NCBI GenBank assembly: GCA_003568775.1
Contig: MWMI01000008.1
Location: forward strand, 1-11,567
Reading direction: 5' to 3'
Source of the DNA: Candidatus Nanoclepta minutus
GTDB lineage: Archaea > Nanobdellota > Nanobdellia > Nanobdellales > Nanobdellaceae
Length of the DNA: 11,567 nt
Shown: one piece after another, positions 947 to 9,589 of the stretch
Layout: every line of letters begins with the position of its first letter
Numbering within the stretch: position 1 is the first letter of the stretch
The notes under the pieces: generated by a model
The model's database searches: none
Told to the model about the DNA's origin: nothing
Seen by the model: the letters and a program-made list of their open reading frames with translations, nothing else
Translations under genes and position numbers: made by a program

Positions 947-2092
947 CTAAATTTCTTCTACCTTCTTTTTTATAACCAAACTTTCTGCATAATCATCTGG
1001 ATCCATTGTTATGATATATCCCTTTGAAACCTCTTCCAACTTATGTCCTGCCCTCCCAAACCTCTGTACCGCTCTAATAACCTGTCTTGGTGACATATAC
1101 TGTATTACTGCATCTACATGACCTATATCAATTCCAAGCTCTAATGAAGATGTAGCAATTATTGCCTTTAACTTTCCTTCCTTAAACAACCTCTCATTCC
1201 TTTCCCTAACTTCCCTAGACAAACTACTGTGGTGTATTTCTATGGGATAATCCGGTAACCATTTCTTAAACCTTGAAACCAATAATTCTGCCATTTCCCT
1301 CGTATTTACAAATATTAAGACAGACCTATGCCTATCCAAGATCTCCTTTATCTTTCTTAAACTCCAAACTATTTTAGGACTCCATTCCAGCTTCCTACTT
1401 AATTCAAAGTCTTCTTCAGTAATCCTGGGATAGAATACCTCTATATCGTATCTCTTAACTCCATACCAATATGCAATATCAAAATCTCTATATCCAAAGA
1501 TAAACCTACCTGCTAGATCTAAATCACCAATCGTTGCAGATAATGCTATCCTTTGAAAATCTCCAGCAAAGTTAACTAACCTCTCTAATCCCAAAGATAA
1601 CTGGACACCTCTCTTATCATCCAATAACTCGTGTAACTCATCTACTATAACGAACTTTACATATCTTAAGTGATCCTTCAATTTTTTTCCTAAAAATAAT
1701 GCTTGTAAAGTTTCAGGGGTTGTTATTAGGAATTCTGGAGGTCTCTTAGACTGTTTTGTCCTCTCACTTTGGGTAGTATCTCCATGTCTTACTGCAATTG
1801 AAATATCTAAATTGTTACACCACCAGTATAATCTATCTAAAAGATCCCTATTTAAGGCCCTTAGTGGAGTTATATAGATAGCCAAAATCCCTTTCACCTC
1901 TTCCCTCTCTCTTATATCTAGGATTCTTGAAAAAACTGGAACTACTGCTGCTTCTGTTTTTCCAGCCCCCGTTGGTGCAACTATTAAGGTATTCTTACCA
2001 TAAAAAACTTTAGGAATAGCTAGTTCCTGTATTTTATTAAAGTTCCCAAACCTTCCCTTGAAAAGTTCTAAAACTTCCTTTCTTATATCCAT
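947..2092 (-). CDS. lhr: Lhr-type superfamily-2 DEAH/DExH helicase, RecA-core-only (N-terminal module of a split or truncated Lhr)
   Basis: SF2 motifs occur in order: I APTGAGKT, Ia YITPLRALNRD, II DELH, III SAT, VI QRFGRAGH. The start overlaps the upstream MPE-type phosphoesterase gene by 10 nt, a classical Lhr-MPE pairing. At 381 aa, the winged-helix and domain-4 half of Lhr-core is absent. Confidence 0.85.
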   Translation of the reverse strand: MDIRKEVLELFKGRFGNFNKIQELAIPKVFYGKNTLIVAPTGAGKTEAAVVPVFSRILDIREREEVKGILAIYITPLRALNRDLLDRLYWWCNNLDISIAVRHGDTTQSERTKQSKRPPEFLITTPETLQALFLGKKLKDHLRYVKFVIVDELHELLDDKRGVQLSLGLERLVNFAGDFQRIALSATIGDLDLAGRFIFGYRDFDIAYWYGVKRYDIEVFYPRITEEDFELSRKLEWSPKIVWSLRKIKEILDRHRSVLIFVNTREMAELLVSRFKKWLPDYPIEIHHSSLSREVRERNERLFKEGKLKAIIATSSLELGIDIGHVDAVIQYMSPRQVIRAVQRFGRAGHKLEEVSKGYIITMDPDDYAESLVIKKKVEEI

Positions 2093-2748
2093 ACTTCCTT
2101 CAATAAGACTCCTTCAAGCGTAAATACGTTGTATGCCTTTATCTTCTTTGCTATAGGACCATGGAAATTCCCTACTTCCCAATAACCGGCTAGATCAGAA
2201 AAGGCAGGGAGTATTATAACCTCCCTCTCATCAAAAGTTCCAGAAACAAAAACCTTCTCATAGAAGGATTCACCAATAATACTCCTTATATTAATAACAA
2301 AATGATGATGTCCTATAACGAAAACTTTTCCATCTAAAACATTCCTCTTATGACCATGAGAAAAAACAACTTTACCTATTTTAATTTCCTTCAGTATCTT
2401 TATATTATCCTTCTTCTCAACTATCTTCTCTAAGCCCCCATCATGGTTACCCTTCAGGATGTATATCCTTTCAAAATATTCCGATATTTTATCTAAAAAG
2501 TATGGTATTTCCCTCATCTCCATTAAACTAACCTTCGGCACATTATGCTTTAGATCTCCAACAATTATCAGATTACTAACCTTACTCTTGCTATATATAT
2601 CCTCTAACTTCTTTATCAAGTAATCGGTAACTGCTGGCAGGTTTATTCCTCCAGTAAACAACTCTCTCTCTATTCCAATATGTAAATCAGAGATTACTAG
2701 GTACTTATCCTTAAAGATTAATGCCTCCTTCCCGGTAAATTTAAACAT
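2083..2748 (-). CDS. Calcineurin-like metallophosphoesterase (MPE / SbcD-Mre11-related archaeal phosphoesterase)
   Basis: Motifs in canonical order: SDLHIG (D-x-H), VGDLKHN (GD), GNHD, SHGH, GHHH. The ATG shares one base with the upstream stop (TAATG), and the 3' end overlaps the helicase start. Confidence 0.85.
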   Translation of the reverse strand: MFKFTGKEALIFKDKYLVISDLHIGIERELFTGGINLPAVTDYLIKKLEDIYSKSKVSNLIIVGDLKHNVPKVSLMEMREIPYFLDKISEYFERIYILKGNHDGGLEKIVEKKDNIKILKEIKIGKVVFSHGHKRNVLDGKVFVIGHHHFVINIRSIIGESFYEKVFVSGTFDEREVIILPAFSDLAGYWEVGNFHGPIAKKIKAYNVFTLEGVLLKEVWI

Positions 2749-4481
2749 TATTTTGCTATTGAATATTCTATAAATACTTTATCTAATACTTTGATTACAT
2801 TTTTATCTAAATAATTCAATAACTTACTGAAATCTTTAAGTATCTCTTTTATATATTCCTTATTAAATTCTCCTATCTTATTTCCATCGTAATCATATAA
2901 TAAGACCTTATCCGAGATTACTATCAGCTTATCTGAGAATACTAATAAGTTTAAAACCTCCCCACCTTTCAATAATATCTTAAAACTATACAAACTTATT
3001 ATATCCTCAACTAAACCCTGTAAATAATCCCTAAAGGCCCTAATTAAGATATATATTTTCTCCTTAAATATATTATACTCTAAATCCTCTGTTTTTCCTT
3101 CTAAAAACTTTCTAATATACTGATTAACTTCTTCAAAGATATTCCCCAACAATGAAAACTTTTCCTGTATGATTTCGTTTATACTCTTCTTATAAATCTC
3201 TTCCAACCTTGATTTAAGGACGTTATATTCCTCAATATAATACATTATCTCTTCTTTCTCCTTTTCTCTATCTATTAGCTGCTTTAAAGCATTCATCCTA
3301 TTAATAAAGCTTTCGGCTTTGGAAATCCATTCGTTTAAGTCTTTATAATCAAAACCCTCTATTTCTCCATGCTCATGCATTTTTCTTAACTTCCATATAT
3401 CCTCCAAATCCTTTGCATAACTATCTTCCAATATCTTTTTCTCCTCAACAAATACCTTTCTTAAGGATTCTATCGTCTCCTTTGGATCCAACGGAGAGAA
3501 ACCATATCTAACCAAAACTGCTTGAGCAGCTGTTAACATAGATACAGCAACATCATTAACTAATAAAGAATTAATTGTATTCCTTATTCTGTCCTTCGAA
3601 TCTTTTAACATCATGTTAGCAACGTTCAGATGCTTTTCTGCAGCCTCTCTCGATGGCTTTAATATTCCCTTTAATAGTAACTGTTTCCAAGCTATAAATG
3701 TACCTCTATCGTAGAAGGCTATGCCATCTCTCAAGAAAGTATAAATAACTGGATTATATTCGGATAAAGCATACCAGAATTCAGTTAAAGTATAAACTTG
3801 AGGATGTATAACCTTCTTTGAATTCAAAAACATCTGAACTTTTAATGCTTCTGTAGTTACTACTTCATATAACTTAGCTTTTAGCTCTTCAAAAGTATGC
3901 ATCTTTACATCAGTATCATCTATTATAACATAAACGTCTACATCAGACTTATCTACATTCCTTCCCTTTACTTGAGATCCAGCTAATGCATATGCAACAA
4001 CATATTTAGAAAATATCTCTAAAAGGGAATTCTTATGTAATGTTACCAATTTAAATATTTCAAAGATACCTTTATCATACAGAATTTCTAGACTGGATAA
4101 GAAATCTAATAGATCAAATCTAGAATCCATAGAAATTTCCATTATATCGCTCATTAGTAATGGATGAATCCAAATCTTCAATCCTTTTTCTTTTATAAAC
4201 TTCAGCGATTCTTCTAAAAATTCTGCCTTAAGCTTTATTTTATCGTTTATAGTATTCAGATCATAATCAGAAAGGATAATTATAATATGTTCGTATTCCC
4301 TTATTTCCTTCTCATGCTTTTCCCTTATATTATCAACGTTTAGCTTATCAATAGAAGAATATCTCAAAAGATCTCCTAAGAACCTTAAGTTTTCCTCCTT
4401 TTTACCATCAGCTTTTCCTATTCCAATTATTCTTTCTTTATCTTTAGATTTAAGAACATAATCCACGAACTCCTGGCTCAT
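2748..4481 (-). CDS. Large multidomain protein: degenerate NTase-like repeat, intact minimal (MNT/pol-beta type) nucleotidyltransferase, HEPN-like helical region with Rx4H, coiled coil, and a beta-rich C-terminal domain
   Basis: G168-S-x10-D180-x-D182 (AGSQVKGRNVDKSDVDVYVIIDD) is the pol-beta/MNT signature. An upstream segment repeats the pattern (SDYDL...IWIHP...LYDKGIF versus SDVDV...VIHP...FYDRGTF). Downstream, LRKMHEHG fits Rx4H. 577-aa ORF. Confidence 0.7.
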   Translation of the reverse strand: MSQEFVDYVLKSKDKERIIGIGKADGKKEENLRFLGDLLRYSSIDKLNVDNIREKHEKEIREYEHIIIILSDYDLNTINDKIKLKAEFLEESLKFIKEKGLKIWIHPLLMSDIMEISMDSRFDLLDFLSSLEILYDKGIFEIFKLVTLHKNSLLEIFSKYVVAYALAGSQVKGRNVDKSDVDVYVIIDDTDVKMHTFEELKAKLYEVVTTEALKVQMFLNSKKVIHPQVYTLTEFWYALSEYNPVIYTFLRDGIAFYDRGTFIAWKQLLLKGILKPSREAAEKHLNVANMMLKDSKDRIRNTINSLLVNDVAVSMLTAAQAVLVRYGFSPLDPKETIESLRKVFVEEKKILEDSYAKDLEDIWKLRKMHEHGEIEGFDYKDLNEWISKAESFINRMNALKQLIDREKEKEEIMYYIEEYNVLKSRLEEIYKKSINEIIQEKFSLLGNIFEEVNQYIRKFLEGKTEDLEYNIFKEKIYILIRAFRDYLQGLVEDIISLYSFKILLKGGEVLNLLVFSDKLIVISDKVLLYDYDGNKIGEFNKEYIKEILKDFSKLLNYLDKNVIKVLDKVFIEYSIAK

Positions 4482-4503: not shown

Positions 4504-5013
4504 TTATATTTCTTTCCTCAACCATTTTAACATACTATTTATATCGATATCTGCTTTTTCTTTTTCTTCCTGTTGTTTAGTTTCTTCCTTTTTTTCTTCC
4601 TTAAAGCTTAAGTATTCTAAAATCTTGTTTCTCAATGCTTCTAATTCATTAAGTTCTACTTTTCTCCTTGGCAAGATAACCTTAATCCCATCTTCTTCAA
4701 ATCTAGGAACTACTTCTAAATATATATGCTTACTTTTCTCATATTCTCTAAAAGTATTTATGGATAATAGATATCCGACCGGCTTAAATATCAATTGAAG
4801 GACATTTGTCAATCTTTTCGCTAAAATAATCATCTTAACTAAAGTTTCATCATCTAATAACTCTATCCTCTCAACATGTCTCCTTGGGAATATTAAGATA
4901 TGGCCTGGGTTAGAAGGAAATATGTTTAAAACACAAACAATATCTTCATCCTCGTATATTTTAAAGGATGGTACTATATTCTCTGAAATCTTACAAAGAC
5001 TGCACTCGTCCAT
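4504..5013 (-). CDS. HIT-superfamily (Hint-like) protein with a degenerate histidine triad and an acidic/lysine-rich C-terminal tail
   Basis: N-terminal CSLC and VLNIFPSNPGHILIFPRRHVE match the HIT fold core. The HxHxHxx position reads H96-I-Y98-L-E100-V-V followed by PR. First gene of the minus-strand operon. Confidence 0.8.
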   Translation of the reverse strand: MDECSLCKISENIVPSFKIYEDEDIVCVLNIFPSNPGHILIFPRRHVERIELLDDETLVKMIILAKRLTNVLQLIFKPVGYLLSINTFREYEKSKHIYLEVVPRFEEDGIKVILPRRKVELNELEALRNKILEYLSFKEEKKEETKQQEEKEKADIDINSMLKWLRKEI

Positions 5014-5050
5014 AAACTTTTTATAAGGTTATCAGAGAAAATAAAGATTT
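5014..5050. promoter_or_regulatory. 37-bp divergent promoter spacer with two opposed TATA-like boxes
   Basis: tttttataa (5018-5026) is centred ~29 nt upstream of the ATG at 5051. On the other strand, tttatttt (complement of 5038-5045) is centred ~28 nt upstream of the ATG at 5013. There is no room for 5' UTRs or SD. Confidence 0.45.
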
Positions 5051-6314: not shown

Positions 6315-7803
<1,489 letters not shown>

Positions 7804-7812
7804 TAGTTAAAG

Positions 7813-7866: not shown

Positions 7867-9114
7867 ATGTTTGAAATAAAACAAAGGGATATTGCTGGAA
7901 GAATAGGAATATTAAACATAAAAGGGAAAAGATTGGAAACTCCAACAATTTTACCAGTAATTAATCCAAACAAGTTAACAATAGATCCAAAAGATATTAA
8001 GGATAGATATAGAATAAATGCAATTATTACAAATGCTTATATAATTTATTCTAAACCAGAAATCAGAGAAAGAATATTAGAAATTGGTATTCATAAATAT
8101 TTAGACTTCAATGGGATAATAGAAACTGATTCTGGATCCTACCAAATGCTACACTATAAAAAGGATTTAGACATAGATAACAAAACGATTGTAGAATTCC
8201 AGATAGAGATAGGGAGCGATATAATAAACGTCTTGGATATACCAACGGATATCGATAAAACATACGAAGAGGCAAAAGAAGAACTTAAAATTACCCTAGA
8301 AAGGATAAGAGAGAGTATAGAAATAAGGAATAGAATTTCTAAGGATACTTGGATAAACGGTGCAATTCAGGGAGGAACATTCATAGATTTGAGGAGAGAA
8401 TCAGCAATCGAAGTTAGTAAATTACCTGTAGACATCTACGCAATAGGTACTATTGTACCATACCTAATAAAGTATAGGTTCCTAGACCTCTTCAAGACAA
8501 TCATTGAGCCAAGAATATTACTTCCGTTAAATAAACCTGTACACCTCTTCGGTGTAGGGCATACGCTAATACTACCGCTTTCCGTATCTATAGGATCGGA
8601 TATATTTGATTCTGCATCCTACGTACTCTTTGCAGAAGATGATAGGATTATAACGAACTATGGAACCTTCAAATTGGATGAACTTGAAGATTTCTATATA
8701 GAAACTAAGAATAAATCCTATCACACATCAGAAATAAAAGAAATGGAAAAGAAGGAAAGAGTAAAAATTCTATCGGAGGCCAACCTTTATTATTTAGTTA
8801 AAGAAATATCTATCATAAAAGACGCTATAAAAAACCAATACTTAATGGATTTGGTATGCTACAAAGCCCATATGCATAGATCAGTCTATGAAGCCACCAG
8901 GTATATACTAGAAAACTATTATAATTGGTTAAAGTCATTGGATCCTATAAGGAAGAGGAGTGGAATAACCTATTATGGAGATTTACTTGAAATAAGAGTA
9001 GAAGTTAGGAGAGCACTAGAAAGGTTAAAGGAAAGGGTAGATATAAGGGATATGGAATACCTGTACGATTATGTATTTCCGTTTAATTCTCTAAAAAATG
9101 ATAGAAAAATATAG
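7867..9114 (+). CDS. tgtA: Archaeosine tRNA-guanine transglycosylase, catalytic TIM-barrel module only (no C2/PUA domains)
   Basis: N-terminus MFEIKQRDIAGRIGILNIKGKRLETPTILPVINPN, ETDSGSYQM (catalytic Asp region), PVHLFGVGH and DIFDSASYVLFAEDDR all align with ArcTGT as I recall it. At 415 aa it is much shorter than the ~580 aa of full-length ArcTGT. Confidence 0.85.
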   Translation: MFEIKQRDIAGRIGILNIKGKRLETPTILPVINPNKLTIDPKDIKDRYRINAIITNAYIIYSKPEIRERILEIGIHKYLDFNGIIETDSGSYQMLHYKKDLDIDNKTIVEFQIEIGSDIINVLDIPTDIDKTYEEAKEELKITLERIRESIEIRNRISKDTWINGAIQGGTFIDLRRESAIEVSKLPVDIYAIGTIVPYLIKYRFLDLFKTIIEPRILLPLNKPVHLFGVGHTLILPLSVSIGSDIFDSASYVLFAEDDRIITNYGTFKLDELEDFYIETKNKSYHTSEIKEMEKKERVKILSEANLYYLVKEISIIKDAIKNQYLMDLVCYKAHMHRSVYEATRYILENYYNWLKSLDPIRKRSGITYYGDLLEIRVEVRRALERLKERVDIRDMEYLYDYVFPFNSLKNDRKI

Positions 9115-9589
9115 AAAAAACATAAAAAGAAACATAAGAAAGACCAAGCTATTTAAAAAGGGAAATAAGATAAGAATAGCAACTTTGTTATCAAATACTA
9201 GAGACTTCTCCATAGATATAATAAAAAAAGTAAATGAAAAGCACAATCTAAATTTAAAAATAGAAACAATAGAATATAGAAACTTGGAGGAATTCTCATT
9301 TGATAATTCAGATATAATAATTGTTCCATTAGAAGGTGTCTTTCTTTCTTTCCTACTATATTCTTATACAAAAGAACCTATATTTTTGAAAATATTCAAA
9401 TCCATCGATACTAACATTACTTATAACGTATCAGAGCTTTACATATCTAAATACCTTAAGAAGAACCCATCAATGTTCTCTTTAAAGTATAGAGAAATCT
9501 TAGAATTCGTTTATAGGATCATGGAAAGAAACGAAAAGTATGTAAGCTCTCTTTCAAACTTTCTATCTTATTTCAGAAAATATTATTAA
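9098..9589 (+). CDS. Hypothetical protein, possibly a degenerate or truncated PP-loop ATPase-like relic
   Basis: 163-aa ORF overlapping the tgtA end by 17 nt. The N-terminus IKRNIRKTKLFKKGNKIRIATLLSNTRDFSIDIIKKV follows the TilS/TtcA/Ncs6/QueC lead-in pattern (..I.k..l...gdkv.va.SGGxDS..l..l), but SGGxDS is replaced by SNTRDFS. Assignment is pattern-level only. Confidence 0.55.
   Translation: MIEKYRKNIKRNIRKTKLFKKGNKIRIATLLSNTRDFSIDIIKKVNEKHNLNLKIETIEYRNLEEFSFDNSDIIIVPLEGVFLSFLLYSYTKEPIFLKIFKSIDTNITYNVSELYISKYLKKNPSMFSLKYREILEFVYRIMERNEKYVSSLSNFLSYFRKYY

Follow-up and report, generated by a model that had tools for sequence, protein, structure and literature searches.

The window (the whole stretch of DNA analysed here, 11,567 nt of a contig of Candidatus Nanoclepta minutus) is AT-rich and comes from a genome of 0.58 Mb in 9 contigs. 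Its minus strand encodes, at positions 4504 to 5013, a protein of 169 aa that is an open reading frame with a match to the Pfam HIT family (E 8.2e-16) and which we describe as HIT-like, or pseudo-Hint. A divergent spacer of 37 bp (5014 to 5050, unstranded) separates this gene from the plus-strand gene of a 312-aa membrane protein, for which searches of Pfam, NCBIfam and the PDB gave no lead. The spacer carries A/T-rich TATA-like boxes some 26-35 nt upstream of both start codons and, read in this way, would be a candidate divergent promoter region.

Downstream of the HIT-like gene and on the same strand lie three further genes. As the sequence-only reading had noted, an NTase-domain gene follows after 22 nt (2748 to 4481, minus strand); its product of 577 aa is a fusion of an MNT-type NTase with a HEPN (UPF0332) domain, with extra N- and C-terminal regions. 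The Pfam matches to Polbeta (E 6.3e-5) and NTP_transf_2 (E 1.4e-3) are weak, both below the gathering scores, and the NCBIfam MntA score of 19.3 bits falls short of the cut-off of 60. A profile built from 33 homologs retrieves PDB entry 2hsb (UPF0332 protein AF0298) with an E-value of 2.5e-7, and the motifs GS..G..D.D and RKxxEH (Rx4H-like) are conserved in the NTase-HEPN family. Type VII MNT-HEPN toxin-antitoxin systems consist of a separate small MNT and a HEPN protein, whereas here both are fused in one protein. A homolog of the fusion was found in 151 of the 151 Nanoarchaeota genomes sampled; such universal retention is unlike that of the usual mobile toxin-antitoxin pairs and the distribution resembles that of a housekeeping gene. 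The NTase stop codon is overlapped by 1 nt by the gene of an MPE-type metallophosphoesterase (2083 to 2748, minus strand; Pfam Metallophos), which scores 119.2 bits against NCBIfam TIGR00024 SbcD_rel_arch (cut-off 115.2) and 77 bits against PdeM. This gene in turn overlaps by 10 nt the N-terminal half of an Lhr-type helicase with two RecA-like domains (947 to 2092, minus strand), which covers positions 20-413 of the 877 of NCBIfam PRK13767 (E 2.4e-99). The helicase is split; its DEAD_assoc C-terminal part lies on another contig (G000:C1:140321-140839, plus strand) in a frame of 522 aa. Lhr-Core/MPE repair gene clusters of bacteria and archaea likewise place an Lhr-type helicase beside an MPE/PdeM-type metallophosphoesterase, but in the window the helicase is split, the MNT-HEPN fusion and the pseudo-HIT gene precede, and the cluster holds no ligase or exonuclease gene.

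The close relatives (L003-L005) have the same gene order as the window. The junction of a HIT-like gene followed by the NTase gene, with a gap of 23-25 nt, recurs in all 16 Nanopusillaceae loci examined, where the HIT-like proteins have diverged to 31-53% identity. Outside Nanopusillaceae, no NTase and HIT-like genes lay within 1.5 kb of each other in 29 Nanoarchaeota genomes; a few genomes have them 4-6 kb from each other, separated by unrelated genes. Pairing of the two is therefore confined to a single family. Co-expression of the HIT-like gene with repair-type genes would thus be a family-level trait, which fits a functional link without proving one. In Nanoarchaeum equitans (L069:311-2357, minus strand, corresponding to AE017199.1 at ~189.8-191.9 kb) the ortholog, which has 'GQ' for 'GH', has no NTase neighbour and shares 14 nt with the gene that encodes the C-terminal half of the split alanyl-tRNA synthetase, in which the editing motifs HTAVH and CSGTH were read by eye.

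At the level of the fold, the protein belongs to the HIT superfamily. Residues 14-105 align to positions 4-96 of the 98 of the Pfam HIT profile (PF01230) with 58.9 bits, well above the Pfam cut-off of 21.5, and a phmmer search of the PDB returned 43 HIT chains at E<=0.01. The catalytic triad, by contrast, is degenerate. The plus strand at 4708 to 4728 reads aactacttctaaatatatatg, whose reverse complement, cat ata tat tta gaa gta gtt, encodes H96-I-Y98-L-E100-V-V followed by P-R, where the motif of catalytic HIT hydrolases and transferases is H-Φ-H-Φ-H-Φ-Φ. In the phmmer alignments khiylevvp falls beneath HFHLHLIP of 3imi and HYHMHIIP of 1y23, free of gaps near the motif. As this alignment and the Pfam match agree, the register of the triad is firm: the first His alone is retained, the position of the nucleophilic middle His is occupied by Tyr and that of the third His by Glu. 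This bears out the triad reported from the letters alone, and the 169-aa protein has no HxHxH elsewhere. To our knowledge, the middle His is the covalent nucleophile in all characterised HIT enzymes, and the third His of the triad acts as the general acid. Since the defining catalytic motif fails, neither 'HIT hydrolase' nor 'Hint' is a proper annotation for the protein.

The CSLC motif (C4, C7) and NPGHILIFPRRH (H38, H46), which the earlier reading had described as intact, are both present. C4-S-L-C7 (4993 to 5004, minus strand) is the CxxC half of a structural zinc site, the other predicted ligands being H46 (4876-4878) and H96 (4726-4728) on the same strand. The protein thus carries, at the sequence level, the CxxC, the PKxH His and the first triad His of the Hint branch. 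C4, C7, H46 and H96 align in phmmer with Cys7, Cys10, His49 and His104 of Candida albicans HINT (6iq1), which bind Zn (PMC6354057), and by homology they would be the structural zinc ligands of HIT proteins. In the nucleotide pocket N86 and H38 are kept. The ribose-binding Asp has become N30 and AGQ is replaced by E-Y-E/K-S-K, at positions that vary among orthologs, and the canonical 'NNG..AGQ..H' loop reads INTFREYEKSKH in the genus of the window. The pocket thus appears to have been eroded further in this genus, with the phosphate-binding AGQ loop largely lost and Asp changed to Asn30.

To follow the triad across related organisms, we gathered full-length orthologs, those of sister genera (L007-L009) through a search of whole genomes and others from named genomes, namely Nanopusillus acidilobi, Nanobsidianus stetteri, Nanobdella aerobiophila, strain YN1, MC-1, several MAGs and Nanoarchaeum equitans. 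Seven close metagenomic homologs (63-95% identity) retain the length, the frame, H96-x-Y98-L-E/D100 and the last ten residues; with the window protein included, Y98 is found in 8/8 and position 100 is Glu in 7/8 and Asp in 1/8. Further afield this pattern breaks down. The 16 Nanopusillaceae loci with the HIT-like-then-NTase order carry the triads HISIE, HTVIQ, HITIQ, HIIIQ, HIVIQ, HIVIN, HIVIS, HIFIQ, HIVLH and HTYIY, and the N. equitans ortholog has HVAIY, so that S, T, V, I, F or A stands in place of Tyr98 and position 100 reads E, Q, S, N, H or Y. When 16 orthologs are aligned, C4, C7, I9, E21, I31, P33, G37, P43, H46, H96, P103, R104 and D108 are invariant and W164 nearly so. H38 (replaced by S/T/Q/D), position 98 (Y/S/V/I/L/C/A) and position 100 (E/N/Y/Q/S/H/F) vary freely; position 98 is never His and position 100 is His in three aligned orthologs only. 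Because the invariant residues are those of the structural zinc site and the fold, it is these, and not the active site, that selection retains. Indeed, the gene is under strong purifying selection, with dN/dS of 0.054-0.10 (Nei-Gojobori, pairs with unsaturated dS only). The same 0.58-Mb genome also encodes a canonical Hint of 130 aa with CxxC and HVHIHIVPR, a paralog that would supply the real Hint activity of the genome; as a working Hint enzyme is encoded there, the divergent copy is kept in addition to it.

How widespread such proteins are was assessed by a HMMER scan of 1.84 billion cluster representatives (without taxonomy labels), which gave 5309 matches at E<=1e-3. Among the best 150 of these, 30 are canonical, and in 115 no HIT domain has the middle His. 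Across 183 aligned domains, position 98 is M in 37, H in 36, I in 25, L in 24, S in 13 and Y in 12, and C4, C7, H46 and H96 are each present in 172-175; all four zinc ligands occur in 135 of the 146 nucleophile-less domains. In an unrooted FastTree tree the domains without the nucleophile fall into one group of 143 rows (SH-like support 92), and the canonical HHH proteins lie outside it. By this tree the window protein sits in a large nucleophile-less HIT clade, which in this analysis is mainly nanoarchaeal. The loss of the nucleophile is apparently old, and the Tyr of the window one of many replacements; a single ancient loss is something we infer, as the tree is unrooted and its support moderate. 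The literature covered by our search yielded no account of archaeal or DPANN HIT proteins that lack the nucleophile. Some Micrarchaeota and Acidobacteria HIT-like proteins (L133, L139, L143) carry another non-canonical triad, 'NHLHAKLYP' (HxHxK), without PR after it.

Members of the clade are built alike: the HIT core is followed by a flexible linker rich in K/E and then by a short C-terminal motif that is conserved. Three tail classes follow the linker. In class a the triad is of the HFMIH type and the C-terminus reads 'LDxIxxLFG'; its 65 rows make up one clade (support 99). Class b combines HxxxN/H triads with the ending 'YLxxQLRRIP'. Class c, to which the window protein belongs, ends in '[DN][YFI]xxΦxxW[FL]x[KR]xI', and its clade (22 rows, support 88) is nested within rows of the b type. 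The a ('HFMIHIIPR ... LDxIxxLFG') and b relatives share with the window protein the tree clade, the core-linker-motif plan and the zinc ligands. They differ from it in that the third His is mostly kept, or is Asn, and in that the AGQ loop is kept, whereas the pocket of class c is more eroded; they also occur as tandem or fused a+b pairs, whereas class c is encoded by a stand-alone gene and has the W-motif tail. In several Nanoarchaeota genomes a class a gene is followed in tandem by a class b gene, and in others the two are fused in two-domain proteins (adjacent genes at L017:842-2073(-), L024:1402-2497(+), L066:300-1461(-) and L068:458-1611(-), with P0010 and P0020 also among the tandem or fused cases). 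Such pairing suggests an a/b heterodimer that would mirror the HIT homodimer.

The class a tail 'LDxIxxLFG' resembles the C-terminal ends that aP1, the ribosomal stalk protein, has in the same genomes (…EEAAAGLGALFG, …GLSALFG, …GLAALFGL). Class a proteins (triad HFMIH) with a stalk-like tail include L066:883-1461(-), L068:976-1611(-), P0035, P0044, P0063, P0079 and P0147, among others. A tail of the form Φ-x-x-Φ-x-x-Φ-Φ that ends within 5 aa of the C-terminus is present in 34 of 73 single-domain HxH proteins, and in 14 of the 73 a final L[FL]G stands no more than 4 residues from the C-terminus. This tail could be a mimic of the stalk tail aimed at translation GTPases. The window protein has no stalk-like 'LFG' ending, which is confined to its class a relatives.

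We modelled the window protein with AlphaFold2. An earlier alignment of 8 sequences gave a pLDDT of 62.5; with one of 58 sequences the mean pLDDT was 84.3, residues 1-135 of the core lay mostly above 85, residues 140-155 fell below 50, and residues 158-168 formed a C-terminal helix. Foldseek against the PDB placed the Bacillus HIT proteins 3imi and 1y23 on top (TM 0.83, target-normalised, rmsd ~2.1 A over ~137 columns) and C. albicans HINT next, with a probability of 1.00 to 3imi, 1y23 and 6iq1. The prediction of a HIT fold is thus a highly confident one and agrees with solved HIT structures. Compared with the Hint-branch CxxC-zinc proteins of B. anthracis (3imi), B. subtilis (Hit, 1y23) and C. 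albicans (HINT, 6iq1), the model has the same fold (TM 0.82-0.84, target-normalised, rmsd 2.0-2.8 A), and the zinc ligands (CxxC, His and first triad His), YEDxD, PR and a helix after the core are common to both. The window protein differs in having Tyr and Glu for the middle and third His, in the replacement of the AGQ phosphate loop, and in the addition of a K/E linker of ~20 residues and a conserved C-terminal W-helix.

The linker (residues ~139-157; 4543 to 4599, minus strand) is predicted to be disordered. The stretch KEEKKEETKQQEEKEKADID (residues 138-157) is 75% K/E/D, and among orthologs the composition is kept as length and sequence vary. It leads to the C-terminal amphipathic helix motif I-N-S-M-L-K-W-L-R-K-E-I (4507 to 4542, minus strand), identified from the alignment and the model. 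The consensus [DN]-[YFI]-x-x-Φ-x-x-W-[FL]-x-[KR]-x-I is retained in all Nanopusillaceae orthologs; in N. equitans the motif is not at the extreme C-terminus. That the Lys/Glu-rich tail is atypical for Hint had been remarked upon before; this was right but understated, since the linker with its C-terminal motif is a defining conserved feature of the protein.

Taken together, we consider it probable that the product of the gene is functional although catalytically dead, a non-catalytic pseudo-Hint that serves as an adaptor or binding module. It retains the HIT fold and the four predicted structural-zinc ligands (C4, C7, H46, H96) and has lost the nucleophile (Y98) and the general acid (E100). 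By homology the HIT core would act as a non-catalytic binding or scaffold module, probably a dimer, and the tethered C-terminal W-helix would dock onto a partner protein. In Nanopusillaceae the HIT-like gene appears as the first of a tight four-gene unit (HIT-like, MNT-HEPN fusion, MPE phosphoesterase and Lhr N-terminal half), and because of this position the partner or process is probably one of nucleic-acid repair or processing. The ligand pocket is poorly conserved in the ortholog group, so that the core may or may not bind a ligand. One or more genes with a HIT fold that are unable to perform HIT chemistry are kept beside a real Hint in the examined Nanoarchaeota, whose genomes are among the smallest of cellular organisms, which suggests that the fold has a conserved role other than catalysis.

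A more specific proposal names the partner: the C-terminal motif might be a degenerate PIP box that tethers the protein, and perhaps the repair enzymes of the operon, to PCNA. A PIP box reads Q-x-x-[LIM]-x-x-[FY]-[FY], often at the C-terminus after a flexible linker (PMC4929162). The end of the HIT-like protein, INSMLKWLRKEI, offers x-x-x-h-x-x-a-[a/L] at the extreme C-terminus behind such a linker, in which h is M or L and 'aa' is W-L here (M161..W164-L165) and W-F in the sister genera (L..W-F in Nanopusillus). In the same genome FEN1 ends in QKSILGFFK, RNase HII in QKNIKDFFK and Nre, a known PIP-bearing client of PCNA (PMC4929162), in ERKIKEWLK, and the presence of repair-type enzymes in the operon would also fit. 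However, the defining Gln is missing in all orthologs, which have I, Y or F instead, and the N. equitans motif does not lie at the very C-terminus. A regular-expression scan of all ORF C-termini of the genome for W-[LF] tails gave a mixed set (Nre, uL22, a TmcA-like protein, a secretion ATPase and DUF357), so that the pattern is unspecific and the W-[LF] motif alone defines no partner. Moreover, the class nests in the tree with 'RIP-tail' HIT-like proteins, whose tails (NYLxxQLRRIP) are not PIP-like. We therefore regard a PIP box as an unlikely candidate.

The adaptor reading can also be extended to the whole clade. More speculatively, and with little confidence, we propose a phylum-wide and undescribed family of natural nucleophile-less HIT 'reader' or adaptor proteins, with a non-hydrolysing HIT core and tethered short C-terminal motifs that would pass the signal on to core machines. 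Within this proposal, classes a and b would probably still bind AMP-type ligands (Ap4A, aminoacyl-AMP or AMPylated targets), the aP1-like tail of class a (LxxIxxLFG, compared with GLxALFG) would be directed to translation GTPases, and the class of the window would use its PIP-like W-helix. The zinc-stabilised core, charged tether and short docking motif would be the common design. The best functional analogy for the wider clade is provided by engineered Hint mutants, which also have a HIT core without the nucleophile: human H112N and E. coli H101N are non-hydrolysing AMP binders, H112N binds AMP ~150-fold more tightly, and H101N has been used to capture AMPylated proteins (PMC12375108). Such a family would be a natural counterpart to these engineered 'dead Hint' AMP binders used for the detection of protein AMPylation. 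The engineered mutants, however, keep the rest of the pocket; in the window protein the third His, the ribose-binding Asp (now Asn) and the phosphate loop are all altered, and AMP binding there is therefore uncertain.

Could the protein still be an enzyme, one that dispenses with the covalent His intermediate through water activated by E100/H96 or acts on a different substrate? The strong purifying selection is compatible with this, as are the retention of H96, H38 and N86 and the acidic position 100 in the genus of the window and its sister clade (HIYLE, HISIE). Yet positions 98 and 100, H38 and the phosphate loop are unconserved across the ortholog group, which is unexpected for a common active site, and the residues that are conserved are the zinc ligands and those of the fold. 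We know of no HIT enzyme that lacks the middle His, and a search of the literature for one found none. A cryptic activity is thus improbable in our view.

The sequence-only reading had left two options, a pseudoenzyme or binding module on the one hand and, on the other, Tyr98 as a covalent nucleotidyl acceptor or as a residue AMPylated by the MNT-type NTase whose gene lies 22 nt downstream. The first is supported here; the second we judge very improbable. In type VII toxin-antitoxin systems the MNT-type NTase AMPylates a Tyr of its HEPN partner. Together with the weak MntA-like match of the neighbouring NTase, and with an invariant Y98 and acidic position 100 in the 8 closest sequences, this speaks for the idea. 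A clade of H-x-Y-x-E variants does exist, but at the genus level only, and the varied triads at the 16 loci and in N. equitans mean that Tyr is a conserved feature neither of the ortholog group nor of the NTase pairing: orthologs beside the same NTase have S, T, V, I or F at this position, and N. equitans, which has no NTase neighbour, has A. Among related domains Y is found in just 12 of 183, scattered. The NTase occurs throughout the phylum without regard to this class of HIT-like proteins, and its own fused HEPN domain would be the expected substrate of Tyr AMPylation, which weakens the idea further. Y98 and E/D100 are nevertheless fixed in the genus-level clade of the window and may have a lineage-specific role there.

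Finally, a decaying remnant without function, as might be suspected from the loss of catalytic residues and the presence of a second, canonical Hint in the genome, is refuted by the selection and conservation data (dN/dS of 0.05-0.10, an intact frame and conserved length in >20 genomes of a lineage with 0.5-0.8 Mb, and conserved zinc ligands and C-terminal motif), and we give it practically no weight.

Beyond the divergent membrane protein gene, the window holds a complete archaeal 16S rRNA gene (6315-7810, plus strand; 1400 bits). It stands alone, with no 23S rRNA or tRNA gene in the window, and the six-frame ORF list contains spurious GC-rich ORFs over it. It is followed by a gene of the TGT family (archaeosine/queuine tRNA-ribosyltransferase; 7867-9114, plus strand) that encodes 415 aa only. 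The end of this gene is overlapped by 17 nt by an ORF of 163 aa without a Pfam match (9098-9589, plus strand), which may be the separated C-terminal part of the TGT enzyme.
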